Shown: piece after piece, positions 2,135 through 17,000 of the stretch
How positions within the stretch are numbered: the first letter of the stretch is position 1
How the letters are laid out: each line of letters begins with the position of its first letter
Notes under the pieces: generated by a model
What the model saw: the letters and a program-made list of their open reading frames with translations, nothing else
Databases searched by the model: none
Told to the model about the DNA's origin: nothing
Position numbers and translations under genes: made by a program
Source of the DNA: Escherichia phage AV125
Strand: one strand, 5' to 3'
DNA length: 64,000 nucleotides
Sequence record: OR352955.1

Positions 2135-3648
2135 AATAATGTTGATAGCTTTCGCCTATGAAAAACCGACACAGAACAAAACTGAATAAATCACGGTATC
2201 GAGCTAATCGACCATTAAACGAATAACCATACATCCCAGGGCAACAGGCTGTTAGAGAGCTATTTAGAGCGGTTAAAATCGATCAACAACCAACAACAAA
2301 CCATCAAAAACACCCTTTTACCTCTTTTCTAGTGCAATGATAACCATTATCATCTATCATTGATTATCTATTCAATATAAGTGCATAACTATAATGTTGA
2401 TAATAGTTCGCAACAACTAACCAACAAACAACATAAAACAATAAGCAAACTAATCATAATCAAAGGAATAATAGCAAGATGACTGATAACGACAAACAAT
2501 CAAACCATGATGAATATTAAACAAGATAACGATAACACGACAAAACAACCAACTAACGAACAATAACAAACGAAACCATTAAAAGATCAACTATTAGCAA
2601 AATAGTGTATATTGCCATAATAGTGACTGAATGAAATCATTACAAAACGAATCATTCCAAGGATCATCATTAGCACGCTACGCCGGACACGTAGCGAGCT
2701 AATAATAAGCCAACTACACCCCAACAATCATAACCATCGGTGATGGTTATTTCTTGTTACTGCGTAGCTTGCAATAATTGCAAGCGTAATGACGCTTACA
2801 CTTATTGCGCTGGCTTATTATTAGCATTATATGTAATTACTAAGATCATAACATTAGCGCAATAACAATAATCATTGTAATAGTTACAAGATGAGATCAT
2901 TAGCAAGATGAATAATTGCACGTAGCAACATGAGCGAATAGCGACAGGTTGCATAGTGTGCACATAGTGTATAAACATACAAGAAAATAAAGGCTAATCT
3001 TTTGGGGGCGAATACTATCGCTACGCGATATGTTGAGCACCTTCTCTTAAACGTAAATAAAATCAGAATAATCTTGATTTATTTTAGTTTTTATGTTAAT
3101 AAACGTTTAAATAATAATCATTCTCATATAAATAATAGTCTGCTTGTCATGAGCGGGATCAGTTGACAATGTTCCGTCATATGATGAAGTTGCCAAACCA
3201 TTGATAAATAAGTGTTTGTGTGATTTATAATCAAGTGGCCCACCTTGTCGCTACGTTGGTATGAGCCTTGCATAAGTCATTGAATACGAATGATAATTAT
3301 TCTCATTCGTATGATATTTGGGAATTGTCGCTGCGTGGACCTGACGGCCCGAAAATTCGCGTTAAGCACTTCTTACGTATGCGCCATGATTTTTGCCATA
3401 TGATATTGATTCTATTAGATATTCTTGCCATGATTGCCATGAAACAGGGTGTCCCGAAATAATCTCTCCCCGTAGATATTTTGGGTTACTTTTTATACAA
3501 GAGTGGGGTGTCAAAAATAATCGGTATATATAGGATAATTGATAGGAATCCCCTATGATAATTCGATTGTAATTCCCTAAGATTGATCGTATGATGTTGG
3601 TGATTGATGATTGCCATGAAAGATGGCTAACGATGAGAGGAGATTGTC
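2135..3648. other. 1.5-kb ORF-free region with strand compositional skew and short direct and inverted repeats
   Basis: No plausible ORF; 2280-2620 is A/C-rich and G-poor on the plus strand; recurring ATTAGC, TATGAT(A/G)TTG, GATTGCCATGAAA and GGGTGTC-N3-AAATAATC motifs; palindromes at about 2675-2705 and 3285-3325. Confidence 0.6.
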
Positions 3649-3993
3649 ATGCAAGAGAGTAAAAATGTTCCGTTGAGTAGTTTACGTCTAATGAAGTTTT
3701 ACAAAGCTTGGCTTGCTGGTGAGGTAGAAGGTCACACAACGAGTGGTTTGTGCATATGTTTGATTAAGTATGTAGAGGGAACATACCCTGATGAACTGTT
3801 ACCTCGTCTACAACAAGAGATGAAATCACAGTTTATTGGTGCAGGATTGGATTACAATTTCCCGTTTAATGAAGGTGGTTATGAGGAATACACCTTTGAA
3901 CATAAAAAACATATTTGCCATAAAAACAAACATCGTATACAATGGGTGCTAGATAGAATTCAAGATTATGAAGGAGAGAAAGATGACAAATAG
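3649..3993 (+). CDS. family A small protein (paralog 1 of 7)
   Basis: 114 aa; motifs FYKAWLAG, TSGLCICL, DYNFPFN, RIQWVLDRI shared with six other ORFs. Confidence 0.7.
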   Translation: MQESKNVPLSSLRLMKFYKAWLAGEVEGHTTSGLCICLIKYVEGTYPDELLPRLQQEMKSQFIGAGLDYNFPFNEGGYEEYTFEHKKHICHKNKHRIQWVLDRIQDYEGEKDDK

Positions 3994-4351
3994 TATTCCG
4001 TTGAGCAGTGCAACATTGCTTCGCTTCTATAAAGCATGGATTGCCAACTATCCTGCAATGAATCGCACAACGAGTGGCTTATGTGGTTGTCTGGTAGACT
4101 ATGTAGATGATTTTGTTGGTGATACACCTAGAGAAGAAGATAGAAAATGGCGTGATCATTTGTTGGACCGTTTGAAATATGAAATGAGGAAACAATTTAC
4201 ATGTGCAGGACTGGACTACAATCTTCCGTTCAATGCAGATTGCATGGATTACCTTTCAGAGTGTATAAACTTGGCGTGTCATACCAACACGTTACGTCTT
4301 CAGTGGGTGAAAGATCGGATTGAAGATGCAAATAATGCTTGCATTGAATAA
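3983..4351 (+). CDS. family A small protein (paralog 2 of 7)
   Basis: Start moved to ATG 3983 (RBS GGAGAG); FYKAWIAN, TSGLCGCL, DYNLPFN, RLQWVKDRI. Confidence 0.7.
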   Translation: MTNSIPLSSATLLRFYKAWIANYPAMNRTTSGLCGCLVDYVDDFVGDTPREEDRKWRDHLLDRLKYEMRKQFTCAGLDYNLPFNADCMDYLSECINLACHTNTLRLQWVKDRIEDANNACIE

Positions 4352-4400
4352 AGATGTTTGTATAATGGATGACATAACAGATAGCCAATGAGGAGATGAA

Positions 4401-4610
4401 ATGAAGAATTTGAAAACTGTCACAATGTTCTTGACTGATCCTACACGTGTGCAAGCACTGGCTAAAGCCAGCCGTGTAGCTGTAGAATTCCAAAACTTTA
4501 AGCCGTCCGTTGTGACAGGCAGTGAAACGTGTGTTATCGATTTCATTAACGAATACTTCCGAGGGAATCCGGTTGGTCGTTACTTTATTAAGGGTCTGAA
4601 GGATGCATAA
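4401..4610 (+). CDS. hypothetical protein
   Basis: 69-aa ORF, RBS GAGGAG. Confidence 0.5.
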   Translation: MKNLKTVTMFLTDPTRVQALAKASRVAVEFQNFKPSVVTGSETCVIDFINEYFRGNPVGRYFIKGLKDA

Positions 4611-4833
4611 CATGAAACGCATGAAAATTCGTATTGAGAATGATGGTGGTTATAAAGGATTGGCACATGCAAAATTTCCACTTGTGTTGGAAGCTACTGT
4701 GGAATACAGTGGGCTTGCTCATGTGCGATTCTCGAAGATGATGGAAGTGCAGGAATGGTTTTGGGACGAGATAGATGCACGAGAAGGGGAAGATTATGTT
4801 TTCTTTCCTCACGAATATGAAATTGTCTATTAA
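4603..4833 (+). CDS. hypothetical protein (paralog of 8920..9141)
   Basis: 76 aa; C-terminal EWFWDE...EGEDYVFFPHE matches EWFEED...EGCDYVFFSDE in 8920..9141. Confidence 0.5.
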   Translation: MHNMKRMKIRIENDGGYKGLAHAKFPLVLEATVEYSGLAHVRFSKMMEVQEWFWDEIDAREGEDYVFFPHEYEIVY

Positions 4834-4836
4834 GGG

Positions 4837-5085
4837 TTGTGTGCAATGATCACACCACAACAGAATGAAGCAGCAATGGATCTTCTCGATAGTTTGTATT
4901 TCGATAACTGGTACTCTGAATGTGAATGGATGAATATGCAAACTCTGAAAGAGAAGACAGAAGCGTTGATTACAGTAGATCAATTTCTTGCAGAGACGGA
5001 AAGAATGAATTATGATATGGCATCTCGCGCACGACGCGTTTCCATTTTCAATAAAATGTTAGCATTATGGGGAGGTAGAAAATGA
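4837..5085 (+). CDS. hypothetical protein
   Basis: 82-aa ORF in compact array. Confidence 0.45.
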   Translation: MCAMITPQQNEAAMDLLDSLYFDNWYSECEWMNMQTLKEKTEALITVDQFLAETERMNYDMASRARRVSIFNKMLALWGGRK

Positions 5086-5543
5086 GACAACCATCTATAC
5101 TGGAAGCGCATGTGCAATGTGTTGTAGATTATGTCAAAGAACACTCAAGTTTATTAAATGTAACCTGTGCAGTGCAAAATGATGTAGGCATTGTCTGTGT
5201 GCAACATATCTTATCTGAAACTCGTTATGAAGTATTTCGTGCCACGTTGTTTGGATGTGATCGAGTGCATGTAAACTTCCTGGACTCCAATTATCGTTAT
5301 GCTTTAGAAAATATTGATGATTATCTTCCTTGCTCTCCGACAGGATATGTAATGGTAACAGCAAACGAAGTAACACCAAGCAACAGTGAACGGGAAGCTT
5401 TGTTACGGAAGAAAATACGCCAACTGAAAATGCTGATGGAAATGCAAGAAGAGATTGAAAAAGAACTGAAAGAAGATTTTGGTATGCTTCCAAAAGACGC
5501 TTTGAAATGGTATGATGAACTAGGAGGAGAGAGCAATGTTTAA
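5082..5543 (+). CDS. hypothetical protein
   Basis: 153-aa ORF, start overlaps upstream stop; C-terminal charged coiled-coil-like segment. Confidence 0.55.
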   Translation: MRQPSILEAHVQCVVDYVKEHSSLLNVTCAVQNDVGIVCVQHILSETRYEVFRATLFGCDRVHVNFLDSNYRYALENIDDYLPCSPTGYVMVTANEVTPSNSEREALLRKKIRQLKMLMEMQEEIEKELKEDFGMLPKDALKWYDELGGESNV

Positions 5544-5994
5544 AGAAGGTCATGTCTACCGTTTCCAGGATGAGGATTATATGCGACTATATTCTACCTT
5601 TGATAACAGTATTGCGGCTATCATTGGAGAGAATTTTTTCGAGGTGTTGAGCACTGATGCAAATGGTAATATCTTGTCAATGGTTGTAATAGGTATGAGA
5701 GATGGTATTATCACTGCTGGTGATGGGGATCGTTACATAATCAATTCTGCTCATATAGATTATTTTGTTGACGGTGGTGTTCGTGGTGGTCGTGGAAAAC
5801 CCCAAGAAGAACCTGTTGATACAACAAAAGAAGAGTGGTATGTTGTAATGACTGATGACACCTGTATTTCTGGATTTGAAAGTTATGAAGAAGCTTTGAA
5901 AGAAGCAGCAGAGCATAAAATGGCTAATCCTACAGAAGAGGTTGAAGTTTATAAACGTATGGTTGTTGCTACCATCGGTGTATCTTTTGTTTAA
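5536..5994 (+). CDS. family B protein (tandem paralog 1 of 3)
   Basis: N-terminus MFKEGHVYRFQDED shared with next two genes (MFKVGFVYNFKSED, MFKANAVYCFKSKA); internal I(I/T)(E/A)AG motif. Confidence 0.6.
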   Translation: MFKEGHVYRFQDEDYMRLYSTFDNSIAAIIGENFFEVLSTDANGNILSMVVIGMRDGIITAGDGDRYIINSAHIDYFVDGGVRGGRGKPQEEPVDTTKEEWYVVMTDDTCISGFESYEEALKEAAEHKMANPTEEVEVYKRMVVATIGVSFV

Positions 5995-6006
5995 AAGGGG
6001 AATGTT

Positions 6007-6792
6007 ATGTTTAAAGTAGGTTTTGTTTATAATTTCAAATCGGAAGATACCAAAAAGAATTTTGGTAAAGCTAGTATTGGTAACGCTTTCTTTGTAGGTT
6101 GCATTCAAGATAGCAAGTTTAAAGTTTTGGATGTTGATTTTCTTGGTTCTGTATCTAAGGTGAAGGTATTAGACACAAATAAAATCATCGAAGCTGGTTC
6201 TGGGCTTTTCCCTGAAGGTTATAAGCTTGTAAGTTGTATGGATTATACTCGTTTTGAAGAACATACTCCTGAAGATTATGAAGATTCTCCTACAGGAGGC
6301 TGTGTCTTTGTAGAAGGTGGTGTCTATAAGTTTGCAAGTGAACAAGATCGTAAGCTTTTCGCCAATTATATTGACGGCGGACAAACGACAAACAATGTAA
6401 ACCGAAAAATTTCCGATCTTATTGGCGATGATCCTTTCGTGATCACAAAGATGGTTGGACAAGATGTAACAGCAATCCGTAGGCTTGTATGTAATACAAA
6501 TCATGTAGCAGGTGAAGGCTGGTTCAAGGAAGCTTGTGCGCTGCTAATCAAAAGCGATAACCCTTATTTTAAAAATATTAAAGATGTTGTTGAGCCTAAA
6601 CAAGAGGAATCCGCAGCGAATTTTAAACACTATGCTATTGTTAAAGGTATGAATGTCCAACTGGTGTCACATTCTTACGAAGAGATCGCCACAGAAGCAA
6701 AAAAGATGAAAGAAGAATACCCAATTTCTACTGTTGAGATCTATGAGCGTATTGGTGTTGTTAGTATTGAGCCTACTGCGGTAATAAAATAA
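6007..6792 (+). CDS. family B protein (tandem paralog 2 of 3, longer)
   Basis: 261 aa; N-terminal domain paralogous to 5536 and 6802 genes. Confidence 0.6.
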   Translation: MFKVGFVYNFKSEDTKKNFGKASIGNAFFVGCIQDSKFKVLDVDFLGSVSKVKVLDTNKIIEAGSGLFPEGYKLVSCMDYTRFEEHTPEDYEDSPTGGCVFVEGGVYKFASEQDRKLFANYIDGGQTTNNVNRKISDLIGDDPFVITKMVGQDVTAIRRLVCNTNHVAGEGWFKEACALLIKSDNPYFKNIKDVVEPKQEESAANFKHYAIVKGMNVQLVSHSYEEIATEAKKMKEEYPISTVEIYERIGVVSIEPTAVIK

Positions 6793-6801
6793 GGAGCTAT
6801 T

Positions 6802-7239
6802 ATGTTCAAAGCTAATGCTGTTTACTGTTTCAAAAGCAAAGCTGCATGTGAAGCTTTCTCTACAATCTCTGATGAAAATTTCAAAATGGCAGCTTTGATT
6901 GAAGGGTCTTGTTTCCGCGTCGAAGATGTTAGTGAATCAGGATCTGTTTGCTCGTTGACTTTATTGGACAGCGGAGATATTATTGAAGCTGGACAGTATC
7001 CGTTCAGAAGTTGGGAGATATTGTTAGCTCGTGGAGAGCGTAACTTTTTTATGTGCGTGTCTGCGGGGGAAGTTGTGAAAGAAACTAAGGATGTTTCTGT
7101 TTACAATTCTGAATTTATAAGTTATAGTGAGTATCAACATCTGGAAGGCATTGTTGGTCACTTGTTATCTCTGATTGACATTGAATGTGACTTGCCTGAA
7201 TCATTGAAAGAAGAGTTGAAAGCATTAGATCTGCTGTAA
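6802..7239 (+). CDS. family B protein (tandem paralog 3 of 3)
   Basis: 145 aa; MFKANAVYCFKSKA...DIIEAG. Confidence 0.6.
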   Translation: MFKANAVYCFKSKAACEAFSTISDENFKMAALIEGSCFRVEDVSESGSVCSLTLLDSGDIIEAGQYPFRSWEILLARGERNFFMCVSAGEVVKETKDVSVYNSEFISYSEYQHLEGIVGHLLSLIDIECDLPESLKEELKALDLL

Positions 7240-7266
7240 TGTTCCGCACAACGAAAGGAGAATAAA

Positions 7267-7566
7267 ATGAATCTGACCGAACAGTTACGCCGTATTGCAA
7301 AAGAAGCTTCCTTCAACTTCCCTGTTGAAGAAGTGATCGAGACATGTTTTGCTGAAGCACGAGCGGGAAACTCTTCAAGAAATTTCACGCCATCTGATTT
7401 TGGTCTGGATAATTCCCCTACCCACCCAGGGGAGATCTACAATCAGGTGAAGTGGATGGATGAAGCAGTAGCAATTCTTCGTGAGCGTGGGCTTATTGTT
7501 TATAAAGAAATGGATCTGAACGGGGCATACGAGTGGATCACTATTGATTGGTCGGAGGTGAAATAA
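7267..7566 (+). CDS. hypothetical protein
   Basis: 99-aa ORF, RBS AAGGAG. Confidence 0.55.
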   Translation: MNLTEQLRRIAKEASFNFPVEEVIETCFAEARAGNSSRNFTPSDFGLDNSPTHPGEIYNQVKWMDEAVAILRERGLIVYKEMDLNGAYEWITIDWSEVK

Positions 7567-7775
7567 TGGTTACTATCACATTGACAGTTACACAAGAGCA
7601 AGCAGAAGAATTACGTGATGCAGTGGCATACATGGGACGCTCTTATTATATGCCTTATAAATCACAAGATGTTTTTGCTACAGCCATTGAGAAAGCTTTA
7701 AACAAATATCGAGAAACTCATGCCGTTCCTAAAGTATCGGCGGAAGAGTTTGGCACTTGGCACGAAGTTCACTGA
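7566..7775 (+). CDS. hypothetical protein
   Basis: Start taken at ATG 7566 (RBS GGAGGTG); 69 aa. Confidence 0.5.
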   Translation: MVTITLTVTQEQAEELRDAVAYMGRSYYMPYKSQDVFATAIEKALNKYRETHAVPKVSAEEFGTWHEVH

Positions 7776-7785
7776 GGAGGTTTCG

Positions 7786-8019
7786 ATGAAAGGTAACAAG
7801 ATGAAAGTTAATCAAGTGCCGAGCGCATACACTTTGTGGCTTGCGCGAGCGTTACACCAGACGATCAAAAACCCTAAGAAGCCAATGAAGAGCGGGAAGA
7901 AGTTTATGTCTAAGGGCAAAACAACCTTTGGCTTCACTCGTATGTCTGTTAAGATGAAAAGACTGGGGTACAAGCCAAACTACGCTCGTTACCCTTCTGA
8001 ATACAACTGGTTTGACTAA
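7786..8019 (+). CDS. basic small protein
   Basis: Start at ATG 7786 (RBS GGAGG); Lys/Arg-rich 77 aa. Confidence 0.5.
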   Translation: MKGNKMKVNQVPSAYTLWLARALHQTIKNPKKPMKSGKKFMSKGKTTFGFTRMSVKMKRLGYKPNYARYPSEYNWFD

Positions 8020-8032
8020 AAGGAGGAAGATT

Positions 8033-8209
8033 ATGGCTACTTTTCAACAATTGAAAGATGTTTCACGTTTAGTAAGAAAAATCCGAGAAGCAGACGCTGC
8101 TGTGCGGAATGCATTAACGCCAGCAGAGCGTGAAGATCTTGAAGAGGAGGTTAAAACAGCCGAGAATGCTTTTGCTGTGTATCTTTCAACACTGTACACA
8201 GGGGGTTAA
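8033..8209 (+). CDS. hypothetical protein
   Basis: Start at ATG 8033 (RBS AAGGAGGAAG); 58 aa. Confidence 0.5.
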   Translation: MATFQQLKDVSRLVRKIREADAAVRNALTPAEREDLEEEVKTAENAFAVYLSTLYTGG

Positions 8210-8524
8210 ATGTCAGAAGAACTTAAAGAATTTTATCAAGCCTATCATAATTGGCTGTTAGCTGGTGCTCCAGATAATAATCCTTTCTGGCACGATAAAG
8301 GTTTGTGCAGTTGCCTCTATCTTTGGTCTGGTGGTTATGATGACCTAAATTATGAAATGCAAATGCAATTTCGAGAAGCAGGATTGTCTGAAGAATACCC
8401 GTTTGATGACGGAGACTGGTTTAAATATGATTTTGCACAAAGAAACGGGCTATTGCATTTGAATGCTGCCCGTATAAGATGGGTAAAAGATCATGCTACA
8501 CAGGAGGATGTGCAATGCCAATAG
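8210..8524 (+). CDS. family A small protein (paralog 3 of 7)
   Basis: FYQAYHNWLLAGAP, KGLCSCL, EEYPFD, RIRWVKDH. Confidence 0.7.
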   Translation: MSEELKEFYQAYHNWLLAGAPDNNPFWHDKGLCSCLYLWSGGYDDLNYEMQMQFREAGLSEEYPFDDGDWFKYDFAQRNGLLHLNAARIRWVKDHATQEDVQCQ

Positions 8525-8715
8525 TGTTTAGTTTCTTGGTAATTGTTATGGTTGTTCTTTTCGCGGCATGGCTTTGGGATTTTGACCCAGGAGCAGCGCA
8601 GCAAAGAGCTACAGACTGGAAAGAACAATGTATTGTGCTCAAACATGAACGAAATGCAGAGAAATTTCTTGACCTGGAGTGTGATCGCCTTGTAAGATAC
8701 AAGCAAGACAAATAA
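8515..8715 (+). CDS. small membrane protein
   Basis: Start at ATG 8515; MPIVFSFLVIVMVVLFAAWLW is one predicted TM segment. Confidence 0.45.
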   Translation: MPIVFSFLVIVMVVLFAAWLWDFDPGAAQQRATDWKEQCIVLKHERNAEKFLDLECDRLVRYKQDK

Positions 8716-8729
8716 CCTTGAGGTGCAAA

Positions 8730-8918
8730 ATGGTAATTGAGATTAAACTTGAGTATGCTGGCGCTGTTGCTCTGATCGCACAAATGCTTGGAGCAAAGAT
8801 TGAAGAAGTGTATATCAACGCTTGGAGCGTAGAGATTGATGTTCCTATGGACAACATTGCTAATCGCTTGCTGGTGGCAGAGTGTGAACGCACCAACATA
8901 ATCTACAAAGGAGCATAA
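8730..8918 (+). CDS. hypothetical protein
   Basis: Start at ATG 8730 (RBS GAGGTG); 62 aa. Confidence 0.45.
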   Translation: MVIEIKLEYAGAVALIAQMLGAKIEEVYINAWSVEIDVPMDNIANRLLVAECERTNIIYKGA

Positions 8919-8919
8919 T

Positions 8920-9141
8920 ATGAAAATTAGAGTTTGTGATGTATTGGGTTATGTTGGTTTTGAGAATGTTCAGATTCCTTTTGTTGTTGAAGCACATCTT
9001 GTTAGTGAGGATATGACAACATTCTTTGTTACGATAGAAGAAATGTCCAAAGTTGAGGGATGGGAGTGGTTTGAAGAAGATGTTTGGGAAGGTTGTGATT
9101 ACGTATTCTTCTCTGATGAAGTGAATGTTCTTTCGGAGTAG
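8920..9141 (+). CDS. hypothetical protein (paralog of 4603..4833)
   Basis: Shares EWF...DYVFF C-terminal motif with 4603..4833. Confidence 0.5.
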   Translation: MKIRVCDVLGYVGFENVQIPFVVEAHLVSEDMTTFFVTIEEMSKVEGWEWFEEDVWEGCDYVFFSDEVNVLSE

Positions 9142-9143
9142 GT

Positions 9144-9350
9144 ATGTCTTGTTTTACAAAAGCAGTATCCATATGTAAGAAACAGTATGAAAGTGATTAC
9201 GGAATATTTAATATTCCAGCGGATCATACAGAGTATTGTTCATGTGGTGGCAGAATGAAGAAAACAGTGATTTATGCGGATAATGGAGATGAACTTGTTC
9301 CGGTTATTGTTTGCAAAGCTTGTCATTCTGTTAAAACATTAAAAGCGTAA
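9144..9350 (+). CDS. small Cys-rich protein
   Basis: 68 aa; CSCGG ... CKAC spaced cysteine pairs. Confidence 0.45.
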   Translation: MSCFTKAVSICKKQYESDYGIFNIPADHTEYCSCGGRMKKTVIYADNGDELVPVIVCKACHSVKTLKA

Positions 9351-9445
9351 GGAGTCGGGACACCCGACGATTGGAGCTAAAAATTTTGCGTACAACCCTT
9401 TTCGCCCAACAGGGGCGCGTCGGGTAAATAAAGAGGAGAGTTTAT

Positions 9446-9844
9446 ATGAAAAAGATCATCGTAGGTTTCTTGTTACTCATTGCATCACTTGGAACAGCAA
9501 ATGCGTCTCAAGTTTATGAGTGTGTGTCAGATGTGGTTGTTAAAAATCTGAAAGGTGAAGTGATTTCTGGTCCTAAGAAAATGGCTTCTGTTGTCATTAA
9601 TAAAGATAACTCCTTTATCCTTAAAAATTCAGGCGGTGCTTTGATGAGTGGCATTCTGCAATACACAGGAGAAAAAAGTAAAGATGGTAGTGCTATGTAC
9701 GGTTCACAACAATTTATTGGCACTACTGAAGTTGTGATGATGCGCACAGAGTATCGAGACACTTTGGCTTGGTTTGCATTTCTAAAAAATGATAAAACAA
9801 TAACGAATGTTCTTACTCTAGAAGCTGATTGTACGCAACGATAA
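9446..9844 (+). CDS. secreted protein (signal peptide)
   Basis: 132 aa; MKKIIVGFLLLIASLGTANAS signal-peptide-like; RBS AGAGGAGAG. Confidence 0.6.
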   Translation: MKKIIVGFLLLIASLGTANASQVYECVSDVVVKNLKGEVISGPKKMASVVINKDNSFILKNSGGALMSGILQYTGEKSKDGSAMYGSQQFIGTTEVVMMRTEYRDTLAWFAFLKNDKTITNVLTLEADCTQR

Positions 9845-9854
9845 GGGAGTATTT

Positions 9855-10301
9855 ATGACTAAAGTGCGACATTATGCTGTAAACTGCAATGATGTTTGGC
9901 GTTTGTGTCCTGATGATCCGACAGAAGGCACATTTGTAAGATATGAGGATTATAAAGAGTTATCGGATGCTGTGATCGCATTGTTAACTGATATCCGTTC
10001 ACGTTATCCAGGACAAGATTTCACTTGCCCTCACATCAAACTTCTTGCTTGTCTGGTAGAAGGTGAGAAAGAAGTGGAAGATGGCTTCAAGCGTGTAGAG
10101 TATCAAGGTGAAACTTTAGAGGTTCCTGAATTTGTTAATTATATTGCAACAGATTCGAGTGGCGAGCGTTATGGCTACAGCCATAAGCCAGAGATTCCTG
10201 ATTGGATTCCCGCTTGGAGATATTCCGTTAGTACCGGAGACTATATCTTCCTTGGTGTAGGTAGTAGTAAGGATTGGCGTTTCTCTTTGACAGAGGTTTA
10301 A
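9855..10301 (+). CDS. hypothetical protein
   Basis: 148-aa ORF. Confidence 0.55.
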   Translation: MTKVRHYAVNCNDVWRLCPDDPTEGTFVRYEDYKELSDAVIALLTDIRSRYPGQDFTCPHIKLLACLVEGEKEVEDGFKRVEYQGETLEVPEFVNYIATDSSGERYGYSHKPEIPDWIPAWRYSVSTGDYIFLGVGSSKDWRFSLTEV

Positions 10302-10305
10302 TAAT

Positions 10306-10569
10306 ATGGAAGAAACATTGCCAGCAGCATATCGTTTGAATGATGAGCGTATTTGGGAGTGGACCGACGTTTCTTGTTTTTACCCTGAAATAGTTCAATA
10401 TTGGCGAGCGAAAGGGTGTGTTGTAGTTATCAACCCTTGTGGACCAGTAGATGAAGATTGCTTGTATCTCGATGGGAAGTGGCACAGTTATTGTCGCTGG
10501 GCTTTTGAGTGGATGTGTAAAGAAGATCTCCCAGAGGGTTGGGAGTATCCAAAAGCAAATAGGAGATAA
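10306..10569 (+). CDS. hypothetical protein
   Basis: 87-aa ORF, Trp/Cys-rich. Confidence 0.5.
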   Translation: MEETLPAAYRLNDERIWEWTDVSCFYPEIVQYWRAKGCVVVINPCGPVDEDCLYLDGKWHSYCRWAFEWMCKEDLPEGWEYPKANRR

Positions 10570-10570
10570 T

Positions 10571-10933
10571 ATGTCTAAAGATTTTGTTGAAGTATTTGTC
10601 AAAGATGAAGAAACTGGTTTAGGCACGGGTTTCATTTGTGAAGAAACTTTTAAGCGTGAACAAGAAAAAGCTATTCTTATGCACCGCTATGATCATGCAT
10701 TAGAACAATGGAAAAATGCAGAACAAAAATGCAAAAACCTTTATGCAGAAAATAGAAAACTACAAGATCAAATGGAGTTGTTAGCTATCAGTTTACGATC
10801 TCTCATTTTGGCTGTAGAAGACGGTTTTAAAAATCCAGATGGTTTTCCTGTGAGCGATATTGAACATGATTTGTATCTTGCTCGTGGTGCTTACTTTTAT
10901 GTTAAACAGAAGTCTGTAGAAGGAGAGAAGTGA
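10571..10933 (+). CDS. hypothetical protein
   Basis: Start at ATG 10571 (RBS GGAG); the track ORF 10451..10933 would overlap the upstream gene in another frame. Confidence 0.5.
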   Translation: MSKDFVEVFVKDEETGLGTGFICEETFKREQEKAILMHRYDHALEQWKNAEQKCKNLYAENRKLQDQMELLAISLRSLILAVEDGFKNPDGFPVSDIEHDLYLARGAYFYVKQKSVEGEK

Positions 10934-11130
10934 TGGAAGAAAAACTGGAACGTATTATCGAGTTAGCCATGTCTATTGGCTACGACGATTGTTTTCTCCA
11001 AACTATTGGAGAAACACAGAACGATTACGACTCTTGGGTGAAAGAGTTGGAAGAACTCAAAACTTCCTTGATTGCTGACTTTGCTGAAGCAGAGGATAAA
11101 GCGGATCGTTACAACTATCTGTGTCGATAA
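10930..11130 (+). CDS. hypothetical protein
   Basis: 66-aa acidic ORF. Confidence 0.45.
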   Translation: MMEEKLERIIELAMSIGYDDCFLQTIGETQNDYDSWVKELEELKTSLIADFAEAEDKADRYNYLCR

Positions 11131-11134
11131 ACCT

Positions 11135-11163
11135 TGACATTTCTTTTATGTATGGTATACATA
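11135..11163 (+). promoter_or_regulatory. possible sigma70-like promoter
   Basis: TTGACA at 11135-11140 with TATACA-like -10 about 16-17 bp downstream. Confidence 0.35.
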
Positions 11164-11192
11164 CATTATCAACGTGAGCAAGGTGGTGTAAT

Positions 11193-11465
11193 ATGAATAA
11201 AGATCGGTTTCTTTCTTTAGTCGCGGAAGCGCCTTTTGATGTTCTTGGGGTGAGATTATGGAAAGACAGAAACTATGGGTTAGATGTTCAAACATATTCT
11301 CTTTGGTTGGTTGGGGAGCACAGCTTAGATGAAAGCTTGTGCATGGGTAGGGATTCTCGTTCCCTTTGTTTAAAGTTTAGAAGCTTAGAACGCGCAAACA
11401 AAGAGCAAGAAAAACTAACGAGGTGGCTAAATGAAAACAAGCGCAGGGTTGATGGAGTTTTATAA
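11193..11465 (+). CDS. hypothetical protein
   Basis: 90-aa ORF, RBS AAGGTGG. Confidence 0.5.
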   Translation: MNKDRFLSLVAEAPFDVLGVRLWKDRNYGLDVQTYSLWLVGEHSLDESLCMGRDSRSLCLKFRSLERANKEQEKLTRWLNENKRRVDGVL

Positions 11466-11757
11466 AATTTATCTAGCATGGATTGATGTTGGTGCTCCTG
11501 ATGGTAAACCTTTTCGGCGGGATTGTGGTTTGTGTGCCAACTTGTTCGATTATGTGCACAGAGGTAATTACAATCCCCTTATAACAACCTTGTCAGATGA
11601 AATGCACGCACAGTTTTACCACAAAGGGTTGAGTCAAGAATTACCCTTCAATGAGAACTACGATGCATATGTCTTAGAATCAGATGCAGGGGTATGTCAC
11701 CTGAACGTGGACAGGATTAATTGGGTAAGAGATCGTATTGCAGAGGAGGATGAATAA
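11431..11757 (+). CDS. family A small protein (paralog 4 of 7)
   Basis: FYKIYLAWIDVGAP, CGLCANL, ELPFN, RINWVRDRI. Confidence 0.7.
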   Translation: MKTSAGLMEFYKIYLAWIDVGAPDGKPFRRDCGLCANLFDYVHRGNYNPLITTLSDEMHAQFYHKGLSQELPFNENYDAYVLESDAGVCHLNVDRINWVRDRIAEEDE

Positions 11758-11984
11758 TGTCGGATTATAACTGGTATGAACTTGAAGCTGTTTGTCAGTT
11801 TTATGATTCAATAGTTCTGCGTGATCCAATCTGTCAAGAATTAAGTCGCCGTGCAAGTGCATTGGCAATCCGTGTTAAAATAAACGGTTGGAACGCAGAT
11901 TTGGAAAAAGAGTTGGCATTTCTCTTAGAAAACACGCGGGTCTTCCGCAAAGTGTTCCCTGAATGGTTTGAGATGGAGGAATAA
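11757..11984 (+). CDS. hypothetical protein
   Basis: 75-aa ORF, ATGA start-stop overlap. Confidence 0.5.
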   Translation: MSDYNWYELEAVCQFYDSIVLRDPICQELSRRASALAIRVKINGWNADLEKELAFLLENTRVFRKVFPEWFEMEE

Positions 11985-11986
11985 CC

Positions 11987-12202
11987 ATGTGGATTGTCCG
12001 TCTTAAATATGATGGTCCAGGTTCTTGGGTGCATAATGTTTGTGGTTGCGATTCCGAAGAAGCAGCACACAAAGCAGGAAGAGCAGTAAGTGCCTTCTAT
12101 AATGACAAACCTCTTTGTTTAGAGATGGCAGGTGTGGTGAGCATGAGTATGTTTGAATACTACTCCTATGATATTAAAAAACATGAAGGAGAGTGGAAAT
12201 GA
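11987..12202 (+). CDS. hypothetical protein
   Basis: 71-aa ORF. Confidence 0.5.
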   Translation: MWIVRLKYDGPGSWVHNVCGCDSEEAAHKAGRAVSAFYNDKPLCLEMAGVVSMSMFEYYSYDIKKHEGEWK

Positions 12203-12519
12203 GCGAAGAACTATTAACATTTTACCGCACGTATTTGGCATGGTTGGAAGCTGGTGCTCCTGAAGGTGAACCGTTCACCCGTTGCACAGGTTTGTGCTCT
12301 AACCTCTATGATTTTTACGATATGGGGGAAAGCGAACGATACGAACCTGTACTGGATGAAATGCATGAGCAGTTCTACCGCAAAGATTTGGTTATGGTAT
12401 TGCCTTTCAACAGTAATTTTGGAAAGTACACCTTAGAAGCGGAAAAAAGCCGCTGTCATTTGAATGTGGATCGTGTGAACTGGGTAAAAGAACGTGTAGC
12501 AGAAGAAATAATTGGTTGA
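12199..12519 (+). CDS. family A small protein (paralog 5 of 7)
   Basis: Start at ATG 12199; FYRTYLAWLEAGAP, TGLCSNL, VLPFN, RVNWVKERV. Confidence 0.7.
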   Translation: MSEELLTFYRTYLAWLEAGAPEGEPFTRCTGLCSNLYDFYDMGESERYEPVLDEMHEQFYRKDLVMVLPFNSNFGKYTLEAEKSRCHLNVDRVNWVKERVAEEIIG

Positions 12520-12573
12520 CAGAAGGATCTGTCTTTGTCATAATCATCTCATCGAAACAGAGAGGAGAAAATC

Positions 12574-12987
12574 ATGAAAAAATTTATTTGCACCCGTTCC
12601 ACTAACAGTGATATCCTTGTAGGTAAGGTTATCAAAGGAGAACTCTTCCATGCAAATGGTAAGAAATATATCCTGCTGAAAGATTCTTTCAACGGGGAAT
12701 ATCCGCGCTGCACTTTCTTTAATTACAACACTCCATTTGCTTTAGAAGGAGATGCTTGGGAATGGGCTGAACTCAATCCTTGTTGTGAAGAAGAAGAATC
12801 TATGTTCTTAGGTTTAAACGTTTACCGTGTAGATTACACCATGTGCGGAGCGGAACATTCTGTTCGCGTAGAAGCCGAATCCAAACTACAAGCACCTTTC
12901 AAGGCAGGATTGACTTTGGGTCATTGTTTGGCAAACATTGAAGATGTTGTGATCCAAAGAGTTGTTTTAGAGAAAGAGGCTATTTGA
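12574..12987 (+). CDS. hypothetical protein
   Basis: 137-aa ORF, RBS GAGAGGAGA. Confidence 0.55.
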   Translation: MKKFICTRSTNSDILVGKVIKGELFHANGKKYILLKDSFNGEYPRCTFFNYNTPFALEGDAWEWAELNPCCEEEESMFLGLNVYRVDYTMCGAEHSVRVEAESKLQAPFKAGLTLGHCLANIEDVVIQRVVLEKEAI

Positions 12988-13041
12988 CAGAAGACGGTAC
13001 AATATTTAAAATATAAAGATTAACCACAAAAGGAGAGAAAC

Positions 13042-13341
13042 ATGCAAGTTGAAGACCTGATCAAGATTCTGAATAAAGCCAAAGAGAAGGGTGCTATCAA
13101 AGACTGGAAACGTGAAACAAGTGAAGACCTATCTCACTGTTGCCGAGAATTTTACATCGAAGGTATTGCTGACGATCATTATATTATCGAATGGTATATC
13201 AACTTAATGACTCTTAAGCACGGTTCGTTTGAGGTTTGGTTTGATGATATTGATGTAAATGGTTTTCATCCTGGCTATAAAATCGCTATGCAGTTATCTT
13301 ATCGTAGAGAAGTTGTAGCACATTTGGGTTTACATAACTAA
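13042..13341 (+). CDS. hypothetical protein
   Basis: 99-aa ORF, RBS AAAGGAGAG. Confidence 0.55.
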   Translation: MQVEDLIKILNKAKEKGAIKDWKRETSEDLSHCCREFYIEGIADDHYIIEWYINLMTLKHGSFEVWFDDIDVNGFHPGYKIAMQLSYRREVVAHLGLHN

Positions 13342-13351
13342 GGAGAAAAGA

Positions 13352-13675
13352 ATGCAAGCAGTTGTTAACGAAGCTATTATGAACTTATCCTTTTTGTTAG
13401 CTGGTTTAGGAGGTGTTCTCATAGGTTTGGCTCTTATCTGGTGTATTCGTCGATTAATCGGGTACCGACAAAAAGGTGTTTCATGTTTTGTATCTTACAA
13501 TTTTACAACTGCTTACAGCAATGAGGTTGGATCTGGCAATGCTCAAGCATTTTTACCAACATATCCTCCTACGGTGGAAGATATTCGAAACTTGGAAGTA
13601 GAACTTATGGGACTAAGTGATAACTATACATCTCTAGTTATTCAAAATATTTTTCGACTAAAACAGGAGGCGTGA
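13352..13675 (+). CDS. membrane protein
   Basis: 107 aa; LSFLLAGLGGVLIGLALIWCI is one predicted TM segment. Confidence 0.5.
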   Translation: MQAVVNEAIMNLSFLLAGLGGVLIGLALIWCIRRLIGYRQKGVSCFVSYNFTTAYSNEVGSGNAQAFLPTYPPTVEDIRNLEVELMGLSDNYTSLVIQNIFRLKQEA

Positions 13676-13888
13676 ATGAAGGTACATTACCCTCATCCCT
13701 TTGATCCTAAAAACAAAGCCGTAATTCTTCGTCAGTGGCAACGGGTTTGTCGTACTAAATGTCCAATCAATAGCCCACACAATGTAGACAAGGACTATCT
13801 TGGGACATTTGTTGAATACACTTACATAGACAAAAACAAGCGTAAACAACATGTCGAGGAATACTGCTTAAGAGTAGAATGGCTGTAA
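13676..13888 (+). CDS. hypothetical protein
   Basis: 70-aa basic ORF. Confidence 0.45.
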   Translation: MKVHYPHPFDPKNKAVILRQWQRVCRTKCPINSPHNVDKDYLGTFVEYTYIDKNKRKQHVEEYCLRVEWL

Positions 13889-13890
13889 AT

Positions 13891-13919
13891 AATAAATACC
13901 TTGACAAGTGTTTATTCGT
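13891..13919 (+). promoter_or_regulatory. sigma70-like promoter upstream of recombinase gene
   Basis: TTGACA 13891-13896, 17-bp spacer, TAAAGT 13914-13919. Confidence 0.5.
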
Positions 13920-13958
13920 TTTGTAAAGTGAGGATACAGCAATGGTTTAGGAGTGGTT

Positions 13959-14630
13959 ATGAAAAAGTTTGTTGTTTACAGTCGTCTTTCTAAACAGAAA
14001 AAAGGTGAGGCACAATATGGTATGGAGAGCCAAGAGAACGATATCCGTTACTTCTTAGACTCTGTGCCTGATGCGGAAGTTATTGGTCAATTTTCTGAAT
14101 ACTATTCGGGTAAGGGCGATTGGAAGCAACGTAAGGAACTGGTTAAAGCGGTTGAAATGTGTAAAGCTACCGGAGCAACTTTATTGGTAGCTAAAGTTGA
14201 CCGCTTGGGTCGTAACAACGCCTCCGTAGCAACTCTTCTAGAAATGATCGATGTTAAGATAGCCATCATGCCAGACGCAGATAAAATGGTTATACAGCTT
14301 CTGTCTGTTCTGGCTGAACAAGAAGTTAGAGGTATTGCTGATCGTATTAAAAAGGGTCTTGCTGTAGCAAAAAGCAAAGGTGTTTTATTAGGCAGTGCTA
14401 ATCCTAAAACTGCCGCTGCACGTAGAAAAGGAAAAATGGAATACAACTCTGTTAAAGCAGACGCTTTTGCAGAGACATTCCGTGAACGTTTGGAGATCCT
14501 TAGAGATTTAAATACACCTTACAAAACTATTGCTGAAAAATTCAATAGTAAGAAAATAGCAACAGCACGTGGTGGTAAATGGGATGCTAAAACTGTTTCT
14601 CGTTTGTGTGCCAGACTGAACATTAAATAG
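13959..14630 (+). CDS. serine recombinase (resolvase/invertase family)
   Basis: YSRLSKQ near N-terminus (catalytic Ser region), VAKVDRLGRN (DRLxR motif), C-terminal HTH-like TIAEKFN...TVSRL; 223 aa. Confidence 0.6.
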   Translation: MKKFVVYSRLSKQKKGEAQYGMESQENDIRYFLDSVPDAEVIGQFSEYYSGKGDWKQRKELVKAVEMCKATGATLLVAKVDRLGRNNASVATLLEMIDVKIAIMPDADKMVIQLLSVLAEQEVRGIADRIKKGLAVAKSKGVLLGSANPKTAAARRKGKMEYNSVKADAFAETFRERLEILRDLNTPYKTIAEKFNSKKIATARGGKWDAKTVSRLCARLNIK

Positions 14631-14638
14631 GAGAGGAT

Positions 14639-15061
14639 ATGAAACAAGAAAATGAATCTGTAGATCACTTAATCATGCTGTCAGCCCTTTTTGCCGGATG
14701 GGACGTATTTTTTGAAAATTTGTTCAATTCTGCTACAGATGGTTCCGATTTTATGCGCCAGTTTAAACGACGAACTGTTGAGGACTATGCTTTCTATTCA
14801 GGTCGGATTGAAAAAGGTTACGAAGATACAAATACAACACTCACCATTAAAGTTTTAGATGTGATGTTTAGTGTTATAGATGCTATCGACGAAAGTCTTC
14901 CGATCCTAGACAATTGTAATACGAAAGCCTATGTTTACAAAATAGCTCGTGCTTATGTGTCTGCAAACAGTTGTCTTCTTTCCACCCAGATTGCCGTGAA
15001 CAATCTTGCCAACTTGTTTGACGAAGGAGAAACTTTTTATGACAATCGATTTGAAGTGTAA
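14639..15061 (+). CDS. hypothetical protein
   Basis: 140-aa ORF. Confidence 0.5.
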   Translation: MKQENESVDHLIMLSALFAGWDVFFENLFNSATDGSDFMRQFKRRTVEDYAFYSGRIEKGYEDTNTTLTIKVLDVMFSVIDAIDESLPILDNCNTKAYVYKIARAYVSANSCLLSTQIAVNNLANLFDEGETFYDNRFEV

Positions 15062-15404
15062 GAGGATTCTTTTAGATTTCTATAATAATTGGTTAGAACA
15101 CCTCCGTCTCTTTCCAAGAGAAAGTGGTTACGCTGATGTTGGCTTATGCCGAGGTCTGCGTATGTATATAAGTGATGAATTTCGGTCCGAGCATTCTTTA
15201 GCATATTCTGTTTATGGTATGCAATTAGCCAGTTTTGAAAACGCTGGCTTAGATACAACTTTCCCATTTAACACAGCAAAATCTTTTGAGCAAGAGTGTA
15301 AGGAAAAACGTTGCATGTTTAATGAAAAACGTGTACAGTGGGTTAAGGATCGAGTTAAACAATTGGAACAAGAGTTGGATTTCTTTTATGACGAGGCAGA
15401 ATAA
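15039..15404 (+). CDS. family A small protein (paralog 6 of 7)
   Basis: Start at ATG 15039 (RBS GAAGGAGA); FYNNWLEHL, VGLCRGL, TFPFN, RVQWVKDRV. Confidence 0.65.
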   Translation: MTIDLKCKRILLDFYNNWLEHLRLFPRESGYADVGLCRGLRMYISDEFRSEHSLAYSVYGMQLASFENAGLDTTFPFNTAKSFEQECKEKRCMFNEKRVQWVKDRVKQLEQELDFFYDEAE

Positions 15405-15676
15405 TGGATAGACAAACCTTAAAAACAATGGCAGATGCTACTAATTCCCCGTACTTTGAAAAAGTAAGTAAATTGGTAGTTCAAGCCGCAGAGGAAGGAT
15501 ATTATAACATAAACATCCACAACCCAAATCTTATACTAGAAATGCCAAGCGATAAGAAGATACAAGAGAGTATCTGTGAAGGTATTGTTAGTTACTGGCG
15601 CGAGCGTGGGTGTGGTGCAAACATGGCTTTAGACAGTGCAAACATTGTAAGATATATAAATATTTCTTGGGGGTGA
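15404..15676 (+). CDS. hypothetical protein
   Basis: 90-aa ORF. Confidence 0.5.
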   Translation: MDRQTLKTMADATNSPYFEKVSKLVVQAAEEGYYNINIHNPNLILEMPSDKKIQESICEGIVSYWRERGCGANMALDSANIVRYINISWG

Positions 15677-15680
15677 TTTT

Positions 15681-16292
15681 ATGATTCAATGCACTCATAT
15701 CCAAATTACTTGGAGAGATGAACTTTACCATTTGGGACAATTTACTGTAGGGGAAACATACCCTGTCATTAAACATAATCCTAACATCGCAAACTTTGAC
15801 AGGATGGTTCTTGTTGAGGACGATCTAGGTCAAACTTATTCTTTAGATCTAAAATATCCGTTTTCTTACGGCTACGATTGGATCGTTACTTTTGAAGACG
15901 TGGAGGAAAATAAAGCAATGAACGAAAAAAATTCTTGGTATTATCGTTGTGAACTGCCGCCAGTAGGTGAAAAGGTTATCTTTGTTCCTGATTTGGAAAG
16001 ATATTCTTGGGACAGTTCTTATTCTGTTCCTAAAGAAGGCACCGAAGTTGAAGTTATTGCACATCGCACAACTTCACATGGTAACGATGTAGCAGTTGTT
16101 TTCTGGGATGATGAAGGCGCTGCTTGTGCAGGTGGCTTTGTTGCAGGTAATTTTGAACCCCTGCCAGATCCTTTGAAGGAGGCAATTTTAGGCGTAGCTT
16201 CTTTTGGACTCTCTTACACATCTGCACAAGAGATCGTAGAAGGTATTTTAAACGGTACCGTTCCAAACGAAATTTTTAAACAGATTAAATAG
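15681..16292 (+). CDS. hypothetical protein
   Basis: 203-aa ORF; followed by hairpin at 16299. Confidence 0.55.
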   Translation: MIQCTHIQITWRDELYHLGQFTVGETYPVIKHNPNIANFDRMVLVEDDLGQTYSLDLKYPFSYGYDWIVTFEDVEENKAMNEKNSWYYRCELPPVGEKVIFVPDLERYSWDSSYSVPKEGTEVEVIAHRTTSHGNDVAVVFWDDEGAACAGGFVAGNFEPLPDPLKEAILGVASFGLSYTSAQEIVEGILNGTVPNEIFKQIK

Positions 16293-16298
16293 TAGTTG

Positions 16299-16322
16299 CA
16301 CCCCGTTCTGCGGGGTGTTATT
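16299..16322 (+). terminator. stem-loop, possible terminator
   Basis: CACCCCG-ttctg-CGGGGTG hairpin then T-rich run. Confidence 0.5.
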
Positions 16323-16343
16323 GTATACGTAAAGGAGGCGCTA

Positions 16344-16703
16344 ATGTATTACACTGAAGACTACATATTGTATAACTTTTTTAAAGGCTGGTTGGAATGG
16401 GCGGAAAAAGCTCCTGTTGGAGATTGTGTTTTTCCTTGGGACTCTCGTCAAGGTTTGTGTCGTTGTTTGGAAGACTGGCTTATAACCACAAGCTACAATT
16501 CAGAGACTAAGAAATCTACATCAAAGAGACTAAAAATGTTATTTGAAGAAGATGGTTTAGATCCGATTTATCCTTTCGGTGCTGAAAGCTTCCACAATGG
16601 TCTTTTTCTTGGCACTCAACATTATGACAAAGATCGCGTAGATTGGGTAAAAGAAAAGGTAGCACAGTATGAATGGGGGCTAAGACTTATCATCGTTGGT
16701 TAG
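16344..16703 (+). CDS. family A small protein (paralog 7 of 7, most divergent)
   Basis: Start at ATG 16344 (RBS AAAGGAGG); FFKGWLEWAEKAP, QGLCRCL, IYPFG, RVDWVKEKV. Confidence 0.65.
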   Translation: MYYTEDYILYNFFKGWLEWAEKAPVGDCVFPWDSRQGLCRCLEDWLITTSYNSETKKSTSKRLKMLFEEDGLDPIYPFGAESFHNGLFLGTQHYDKDRVDWVKEKVAQYEWGLRLIIVG

Positions 16704-16873: not shown

Positions 16874-17000
16874 GAAATTGTTTAATATTCGTGAGAACCG
16901 TGATGGATCGTTCTCTGTAGTCAATGAGTTTAACGTTTCGGTTGGGACTTTTATTACTAAACGTCAAGCAGAACAAGTAAGAGATACTTTAAACAAGTAA
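16866..17000 (+). CDS. small hypothetical protein (44 aa)
   Basis: ATG 16866 with RBS GGAGGTAGAA; MSKKLFNIRENRDG...; below track cut-off. Confidence 0.35.
   Translation: MSKKLFNIRENRDGSFSVVNEFNVSVGTFITKRQAEQVRDTLNK

Follow-up and report, generated by a model that had tools for sequence, protein, structure and literature searches.

The DNA considered here is a stretch of 64,000 nucleotides from Escherichia phage AV125 (sequence record OR352955.1), hereafter called the window, and the subject is a family of seven small paralogous genes lying between positions 3,649 and 16,703. Window bases 3000-17000 share 96-98% nucleotide identity with the phAPEC8-like E. coli myoviruses of about 150 kb, and judged by its sequence the window comes from a phAPEC8-like Phapecoctavirus of the subfamily Stephanstirmvirinae. 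The first 20 kb form a plus-strand array of tightly packed small genes, nearly all of which are named 'hypothetical protein' in every related record.

Organization of the locus

An initial annotation, made from the DNA letters alone, had proposed that seven open reading frames (ORFs) of this array form one paralogous family. A search of all six-frame ORFs of the 64-kb window with a family hidden Markov model (HMM) retrieved exactly these seven plus-strand ORFs with E values of 1e-31 to 1e-37; no eighth member was found in the 64-kb window, where the next best HMM match had an E value above 1. In an all-vs-all BLASTP comparison of the window, the seven copies made up the largest paralog cluster. 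The copies are listed below with the isoelectric point (pI), the HMM E value and, where noted, the match to the catalogued profile phrog_2510, the Shine-Dalgarno sequence, the ratio of non-synonymous to synonymous substitution rates (dN/dS) and the phAPEC8 counterpart.

Copy 1, 3649-3993, + strand: 114 residues, pI 5.9; first of a tandem pair; HMM E 7.7e-33; phrog_2510 E 6e-26; Shine-Dalgarno gagaggag ahead of the ATG; dN/dS 0.10; counterpart phAPEC8_0018.
Copy 2, 3983-4351, + strand: 122 residues, pI 5.1; 12-residue insertion in a variable loop; HMM E 2.1e-36; Shine-Dalgarno aaggag ahead of ATG 3983; dN/dS 0.18; counterpart phAPEC8_0019.
Copy 3, 8210-8524, + strand: 104 residues, pI 4.5; HMM E 1.9e-33; dN/dS 0.04; found in every relative examined.
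Copy 4, 11431-11757, + strand: 108 residues, pI 4.8; HMM E 6.5e-37; phrog_2510 E 4e-32; dN/dS 0.30; the copy used for structure modelling.
Copy 5, 12199-12519, + strand: 106 residues, pI 4.6; HMM E 2.6e-37; dN/dS 0.14; counterpart phAPEC8_0044.
Copy 6, 15039-15404, + strand: 121 residues, pI 5.3; HMM E 1.4e-31; Shine-Dalgarno gaaggag; dN/dS 0.06; divergent, with Met at the usual position of His90.
Terminator-like hairpin, 16298-16318, + strand: just upstream of copy 7; top-scoring in the block, with 9 pairs of which 6 are G-C.
Copy 7, 16344-16703, + strand: 119 residues, pI 5.0; HMM E 3.8e-31; Shine-Dalgarno aaaggagg ahead of ATG 16344; most divergent copy; aligned to phAPEC8_0054.

Copies 1 and 2 stand in tandem, the start of copy 2 overlapping the end of copy 1 by 11 nt, and the five remaining copies are interspersed with unrelated small genes that are themselves narrow families without assigned function, a layout that agrees with the first description. 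All seven ATG codons are preceded by a strong Shine-Dalgarno sequence 5-10 nt upstream. The size range first given, 104-135 residues, is right at its lower end; the figure of 135 came from an extension of the last ORF to a TTG codon at 16296. This start is disfavoured because the extension overlaps the hairpin at 16298-16318, and the true sizes are therefore 104-122 residues, with 119 residues for copy 7 from its best start. Compared with all six relatives aligned, copy 7 also carries one extra G in a run of G (16670-16680), which converts the ending YEWG* to YEWGLRLIIVG*, lengthens the tail by 7 residues with the domain intact and alters the start of the downstream gene. The extra G is either a real variant or a homopolymer sequencing error.

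The alignment of the seven translations is in register, and the four ordered motifs proposed at the outset run through all of them with small deviations in detail. The invariant residues, in copy-1 numbering, are L14, F17, G33, L34, C35, L38, F62, L67, P72, F73, R96, W99 and V100. The motifs GLCxxL and (L/F/Y)PF(N/D/G) match literally in 7/7 copies. The N-terminal motif reads FYxxW(L/I) in copies 1, 2, 6 and 7 and FYxxYxxW(L/I) in copies 3-5, a shift of one helical turn, and the C-terminal motif shows three single-residue deviations (RIQWVLDR, RLQWVKDR and RIRWVKDH). Promoter-like sites in the block numbered 70 against 57 +/- 8 in shuffled sequences, which is no significant enrichment, and no Rfam match was found in the block.

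Family membership and distribution

The family had been described as unrecognised, and in this respect the description has to be revised. All seven copies match phrog_2510, a group of unassigned function, with E values of 1e-25 to 4e-32; members in the record of the related phage ukendt are tagged pVOG VOG7392; and gp3 of phage N4 is included in the family. The phrog_2510 profile has 219 positions and the copies match its first half, consistent with two-domain members in that group. Weaker matches were obtained to phrog_6418, phrog_27059 and phrog_2176. Both phrog_2510 and VOG7392 are catalogue entries only, with no fold, function or paralog expansion described. The failure to place the family in a characterised domain has stood up, since profile and structure searches gave no domain of known function: Pfam, NCBIfam and PADLOC searches with the seven copies returned no match near threshold, Pfam gave no consistent match for 116 members, and none was obtained for ten long or multi-domain homologs. 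A literature search covering N4 gp3, phrog_2510, VOG7392 and toxicity or essentiality screens found no functional statement, the phage transposon-sequencing (Tn-seq) preprints being concerned with other phages. What was already known is thus the family as a catalogue entry, its function and structure being uncharacterised.

The link to N4 comes from two records. Achromobacter phage JWAlpha has its own member noted as similar to phAPEC8_0044, the equivalent of copy 5, and to N4 gp3; vB_EcoP_3HA13, which belongs to the species Enquatrovirus N4, has as its third gene from the left a clear member with every motif present (HMM E 2.6e-21). N4 gp3 is an early-region gene, encodes 104 residues and shares the motifs GLC, PFN, CHLN and RINWIK; it is the only member from a model phage. 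The N4-like phages (Schitoviridae) mostly have one copy and sometimes two in tandem, whereas the window phage has seven. The left-end early genes of N4 are transcribed by the injected virion RNA polymerase (PMC4496689), and a review of N4 that gives functions to gp1, gp2, gp15 and gp16 leaves gp3 unmentioned (PMC4496689).

In an exhaustive profile search of 1.84 billion representative proteins, 1,263 clusters matched at E <= 1e-10 and 2,111 at E <= 1e-3; the family thus spans no fewer than 2,111 clusters defined at 50% identity. Most of these members have 95-130 residues and some contain two or three tandem domains. With a single copy as query, tblastn found 666 places in 259 phage records, the carriers comprising phAPEC8-like, rV5-like, N4-like and T1-like phages as well as phages of Rhizobium, Achromobacter, Erwinia, Delftia and Ralstonia, to which the structure search added Burkholderia phages and Pseudomonas PAK_P1/KPP10-like phages. 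Word-indexed searches of proteins yielded no more than 31-36 matches, none of them named, and a pattern scan of viral contigs gave 2 loci. Among the individual contexts, a metagenomic member lies upstream of a gene for a T7-type RNA polymerase, in an early block resembling that of N4, and a member in a Rac-like prophage follows the replication genes in a nin-like delayed-early region. Only one plasmid carrier was found, which is phage-plasmid-like, and the gene of this plasmid member is full-length in about 20 of 5,426 E. coli genomes. The family is thus restricted to phages and prophages that infect Proteobacteria, and its genes always have early accessory genes for neighbours.

Three identifications suggested by related records or homologs were rejected. 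The identity of goF mRNA metabolism modulator, after a T4 goF-like label, occurs in the same early block of the same phages but not on the seven copies: it belongs to a neighbouring trio at 5536-7239 (phrog_3710), which is unrelated to them in sequence. The trio is a second paralog set made up of the adjacent plus-strand genes 5536-5994, 6007-6792 and 6802-7239, all of which start MFKxGxVYxF and the middle one of which has two modules; its phrog_3710 match and weak goF-type PHROG matches are the source of the goF labels in relatives. An 'endolysin' label over a homolog in OY978778.1 (Klebsiella phage vB_Kpn_K60PH164C1) is on the wrong strand and pseudogene-flagged. At 2130-2821 of that record, endolysin, spanin, holin and portal, all flagged as pseudogenes, are placed opposite two clear tandem members on the plus strand, and the deposited annotation looks wrong in strand or otherwise unreliable. 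A fusion with DUF551 in the prophage and phage-plasmid member gained no confirmation from Pfam.

Copy-number flux, selection and dispensability

Variable copy number in related phages, which had been put forward as a check, was borne out. In the homologous block of relatives at about 96-98% nucleotide identity, five copies are present in vB_Ec-G1 and ukendt, six in phAPEC8_ev052, Ro121c4YLVW and ECML-183-2, seven in phAPEC8 and the window phage, and ten in PsgM04F. Copies 1 and 2 are fused to one chimeric gene in vB_Ec-G1, ukendt and ECML-183-2. The tandem pair collapsed at least twice by unequal crossover at different points, one chimera joining the first ~11 codons of copy 1 to copy 2 and the other joining copies 1 and 2 at the AGLDYN-PFN motif. 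Copy 5 occupies the most dispensable slot and is absent from four of seven close relatives (vB_Ec-G1, phAPEC8_ev052, ukendt and Ro121c4YLVW), and the slots at 8210, 11431, 15039 and 16344 are present in all relatives examined. Independent tandem arrays occur elsewhere, with three copies in phage PTXU04 and two in a Klebsiella N4-like phage.

Directly after the stop codon of copy 5 lies a near-consensus sigma-70-type promoter (12516-12544, + strand; TTGACA, a spacing of 17 nt, CATAAT, with an upstream TG), which overlaps a small terminator-like hairpin at 12518-12533 (+ strand). A transcription-unit boundary may be located at this most variable slot.

In a neighbour-joining tree, copies 1 and 2 and copies 4 and 5 form sister pairs and copies 6 and 7 come together on long branches; any other two copies meet only at the root of almost the entire family. 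Copy 3 shows 48% identity to foreign homologs against 41% to its own paralogs. Copies 1 and 2, and likewise 4 and 5, look like local duplicates in this tree, as possibly do 6 and 7; the deep splits and the placement of copy 3 point to ancient duplications or separate acquisitions for the rest. The sequences therefore suggest a few old local duplications atop much older divergence or separate acquisitions, so that the repeated duplication and divergence originally proposed fits those pairs and not the deep splits, which approach the diversity of the whole family. At the DNA level the copies resemble one another in the motif codons only and share no flanks. The idea that they spread as multi-gene cassettes or mobile units was rejected, the neighbours not being paralogous and no flanking DNA repeats being present.

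Pooled Nei-Gojobori dN/dS values against six or seven relatives were 0.04-0.30 per copy and 0.00-0.34 for 14 neighbouring genes, in comparisons that are shallow and non-independent. The copies are held by purifying selection. This pattern bears on the idea that they are selfish or decaying duplicates, in effect mobile mini-cassettes of no benefit to the phage, which we consider very improbable. Presence/absence variation, recombination chimeras and the dispensability of single copies would suit such elements, but the low dN/dS values (0.04-0.30), intact ORFs and strong ribosome-binding sites, the presence of the four slots 8210, 11431, 15039 and 16344 in all relatives examined, and the lack of shared flanking DNA, cassette repeats or co-duplicated neighbours all speak against them.

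Dispensability was assessed from a published screen. In the transcriptome-wide dCas13d knockdown screen CRISPRi-ART, the three tandem members of PTXU04 (PTXU04_00085, 86 and 87) were each scored 'Not Fit' (PMC11879866, supplementary file 16), with fitness values of -1.99, -1.51 and -2.32 against a Fit threshold of > -1.1 and P values of 0.63, 0.54 and 0.81 (PMC11879866). According to these scores, knockdown of a single member did not impair infection of the laboratory host.

These data also bear on the possibility of a role within the phage's own programme, in which the proteins would assist phage transcription, replication or the early-to-middle switch, for example as adaptors or cofactors. 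The N4 gene stands directly after gp1 and gp2, the cofactors of phage RNA polymerase II, members follow the replication genes in lambdoid prophages, and purifying selection on the copies is as strong as on their neighbours. However, the carriers (N4-like, rV5-like, T1-like and lambdoid) differ widely in transcription and replication strategy and offer no common phage partner, copy number ranges from 5 to 10 among near-identical genomes, the three PTXU04 members are dispensable, and proteins this acidic are unlikely to bind nucleic acid. A role in the phage's own programme is accordingly considered unlikely.

Predicted fold, conservation and probable self-association

An AlphaFold2 model of copy 4, built with a 31-sequence alignment, reached a predicted local distance difference test (pLDDT) score of 94.3 and a predicted template modelling (pTM) score of 0.86. 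It shows a domain of about 100 residues with five helices (residues 5-19, 34-43, 50-64, 77-85 and 93-107) and no beta strands. Independent BFVD models of homologs, compared with it by Foldseek, gave template modelling (TM) scores of 0.8-0.85. Neither a structure search of the PDB nor a PDB sequence profile search found a solved structural relative. The CRISPRi-ART authors had likewise annotated the three PTXU04 members as 'unknown' by manual HHpred (PMC11879866), and reported limited success in AlphaFold-based structural alignment of the remaining hypothetical genes of this phage (PMC11879866).

Conservation was evaluated over 116 diverse members with 25% mean column identity and is given in copy-4 numbering. 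The ordered motifs recur in these members. Five residues, C35, P72, F73, R95 and W98, are 100% conserved. At least 93% conservation is seen for G33, L34, L7, F10, V99, Y11, W17, Q61, F62, L67 and N92 (Q61 and N92 at 93%), followed by E57 at 87% and H90 at 84%. On helical wheels the conserved hydrophobic residues form buried faces and the exposed faces have near-maximal entropy (2.8-3.8 bits), with the conserved polar residues C35, N37, E57, Q61, E83, R95 and H102 at the edges of the buried faces. On helix 5 the core stripe I96/V99/A103 is flanked by another conserved one, R95/W98/H102. The loops GAPxxxPFxRxxGLC, YPFN and CHLNP are conserved, and the loop at 43-53, where copy 2 has its 12-residue insertion, varies in length and sequence. 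The picture first drawn, of conserved motifs set in a strongly diverged remainder, thus holds for the variable surfaces, but the conserved part is not simply a scaffold: sequence periodicity suggests, besides the core, a semi-exposed polar/aromatic site made up of C35, E57, Q61, H90, N92, R95 and W98.

Such a site raises the question of catalysis. A small enzyme, with Cys35 at the start of helix 2 as its nucleophile or redox centre and R95, E57, Q61, H90 and N92 as partner residues, might modify a host protein, nucleic acid or metabolite, with the paralogs differing in substrate. This would account for C35 and R95 being kept in 100% of 116 members at such low mean identity (25%), for the conservation of Q61, N92, E57 and H90 at 84-93%, for the location of these residues at the edge of the core and not inside it, and for the retention of the Cys in both domains of fused members with one exception in 36 domains. 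In opposition, no known all-helical thiol enzyme fold was matched, and position 90 holds Met or Tyr instead of His in some real members, copy 6 among them. Tandem self-fusions and genomes with as many as ten copies are more typical of binding modules than of enzymes; an enzymatic function is rated as rather improbable. Particular active sites were tried and dismissed. A Cys-x5-Arg phosphatase or arsenate-reductase site is contradicted by C89, which occurs in just 37% of members and is missing from copies 3 and 7, and by the all-helical model; the R-x4-6-H motif of HEPN nucleases is absent, the order here being H...R; a papain-like Cys-His(-Asn) hydrolase conflicts with a model lacking beta strands and with H90, which is 84% conserved and gives way to Met or Tyr in some real members; and a Cys loop of P450 type, suggested by eye, was ruled out on conservation or fold.

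The products of the seven copies are soluble and acidic (pI 4.5-5.9; family median 5.45) and contain 11-18% aromatic residues. Direct nucleic-acid binding is disfavoured because of this acidity.

The only domain fusions seen are self-fusions of two or three domains, in which, as noted, both fusion domains keep the Cys with that single exception. A 199-residue two-domain fusion with a linker of ~4 residues, modelled from an alignment of 18 such fusions, gave a pLDDT of 95.1 and a pTM of 0.81, and this whole-chain pTM indicates fixed domain-domain packing. By Rosetta-stone reasoning from this model, members with one domain probably form dimers. Since copies 1 and 2 overlap by 11 nt, their translation could be coupled and yield a heterodimer pair.

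The predicted dimer-like arrangement is also relevant to small-molecule binding, either as a sponge for a nucleotide immune signal or as a metal or haem holder, with an aromatic/Arg/His/Asn/Gln/Cys pocket possibly at the dimer interface. Known phage sponges are small, early proteins that are dispensable on laboratory hosts and usually encoded in a single copy, and solved phage sponge proteins (Acb2, Tad1/Tad2) are available in the PDB. By functional analogy only, Acb2, Tad1 and Tad2 resemble the present family as small, oligomeric early accessory proteins with pockets of aromatic and basic residues; they differ in showing no similarity of fold, and the conserved residues of the present family are invariant between paralogs. 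Many invariant aromatics alongside R, H, N, Q, E and C are the kinds of residue found in a nucleotide or cofactor pocket, yet no structural similarity to any solved structure was found, and a second conserved Cys/His set typical of a metal site is absent. Moreover, the candidate pocket residues are alike in all paralogs, so that the seven copies would take the same ligand and their divergence would be left without a reason. We regard a ligand-holding role as quite unlikely.

Proposed role of the paralogs

From the family membership, predicted fold, conservation pattern, distribution, copy-number flux, purifying selection and dispensability described above, we infer, with confidence slightly short of even, that the paralogs bind host and possibly phage macromolecules stoichiometrically, probably as dimers, through a shared conserved site and paralog-specific surfaces. 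The proteins would act stoichiometrically, probably as homo- or heterodimers, by binding host, or possibly phage, macromolecules early in infection. All paralogs would dimerise or dock through the conserved site and would owe their separate specificities to the variable surfaces, making the proteins conditionally useful accessories for host modulation or counter-defence rather than core replication or virion functions. The genes lie in arrays that are early or delayed-early in all cases of known timing, as at the N4 left end and in the lambdoid nin-like region. The suggestion that the family takes part in host takeover or counter-defence with several targets is plausible, being consistent with early position, accessory behaviour, phage restriction and dispensability on a laboratory host. 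In this scheme the presumed elements are that the genes of the window phage are early, that the proteins dimerise, that they work by binding and that their target is the host.

Functional analogies, and no more than these, exist with T4 AsiA, T7 Ocr, Gp2, anti-CRISPRs and other anti-defence proteins, which are likewise small, acidic, cytoplasmic, early accessory, dispensable on laboratory hosts, variable and phage-restricted. In contrast, AsiA, Ocr, Gp2 and the anti-CRISPRs have no sequence or structural similarity to the seven copies, and to our knowledge no protein of this type is known as a family of 5-10 copies with an invariant Cys/Arg site.

Several points weigh against macromolecular binding of this kind. 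Early timing in Phapecoctavirus is suggested by position and analogy only, and no member has a known binding partner, phenotype or expression timing. The dimer rests on one predicted fusion structure. A pure binding scaffold would not usually be expected to keep an invariant Cys, an invariant Arg and other conserved polar residues; these could reflect catalysis or the binding of a ligand or metal. The orthologs show no gene-wide signal of diversifying selection as expected of an arms race; no association with known anti-defence genes was found and PADLOC was empty for the seven copies. Finally, the dispensability in PTXU04 could reflect redundancy among tandem copies or incomplete knockdown in place of an accessory role.

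A more far-reaching form of the proposal holds that the fold is new, that the Cys/Arg/Glu/Gln/His/Asn/Trp cluster is an active or ligand site at the dimer interface, and that 5-10 paralogs form combinatorial homo- and heterodimers neutralising a range of host defence or stress pathways. We give this version a low probability; if true, it would represent a previously unknown, widespread class of multi-target phage counter-defence modules.

Other features of the window and of related records

Directly upstream of copy 1 lies an AT-rich stretch of 1.5 kb (2122-3648; GC 0.35) with no convincing ORF, preceded by a strong terminator-like hairpin at 2103-2121. The stretch is likewise unannotated in phAPEC8 and its relatives, contains short weak repeats only and matches nothing in Rfam; it may serve as a promoter, as another kind of regulatory region or as a replication origin.

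A third paralogous set is the plus-strand pair 4603-4833 and 8920-9141, encoding 76 and 73 residues with a C-terminal EG.DYVFF, whose counterparts in ukendt are both tagged VOG6032. A serine recombinase or DNA invertase gene (13953-14630, + strand) is situated inside the small early block of this lytic myovirus and is extremely conserved, with 55 synonymous and 0 non-synonymous differences pooled over six relatives. Further downstream, 10 tRNA genes (Met, Arg, Ser, Asn, Thr, Gly, Gln, Pro, Ile and Met) occupy 59895-61906 on the plus strand. The plus-strand genes at 1030-1320 and 9446-9844 begin, as judged by eye, with the signal-peptide-like N-termini MKKMIAVVALVVGINAPVLA and MKKIIVGFLLLIASLGTANA, and their products may be exported proteins or lipoproteins, acting for example in superinfection exclusion.

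Some records named after other hosts belong to close relatives of E. coli Phapecoctavirus genomes: Pseudomonas phage PsgM04F (OR584014.1), Acinetobacter phage vB_AbaM_ABPW7 and several Campylobacter phages. The ortholog of copy 4 has 81% protein identity in PsgM04F and 93% in ABPW7, and several Campylobacter-named records match the window DNA directly. The stated hosts of PsgM04F, ABPW7 and the Campylobacter-named records may be doubtful.

Significance

Phage early regions are rich in paralog families of unassigned role, and the present family stands above the average ORFan by its size, its presence in N4, its fold, its Cys/Arg site, its self-fusions and its expansions to 5-10 copies. It is found in the model phage N4, in the phAPEC8-like and rV5-like coliphages that are often considered for phage therapy, and in E. 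coli prophages, yet it has no Pfam entry, solved structure or function. With a confident model that lacks a solved relative, an invariant Cys/Arg site, self-fusions and as many as ten copies per genome, the family is clearly delimited and tractable as a target. If one member were solved, N4 gp3 being the obvious choice, thousands of phage genes would gain an annotation, and a novel means by which phages deal with their hosts at the early stage of infection could come to light.

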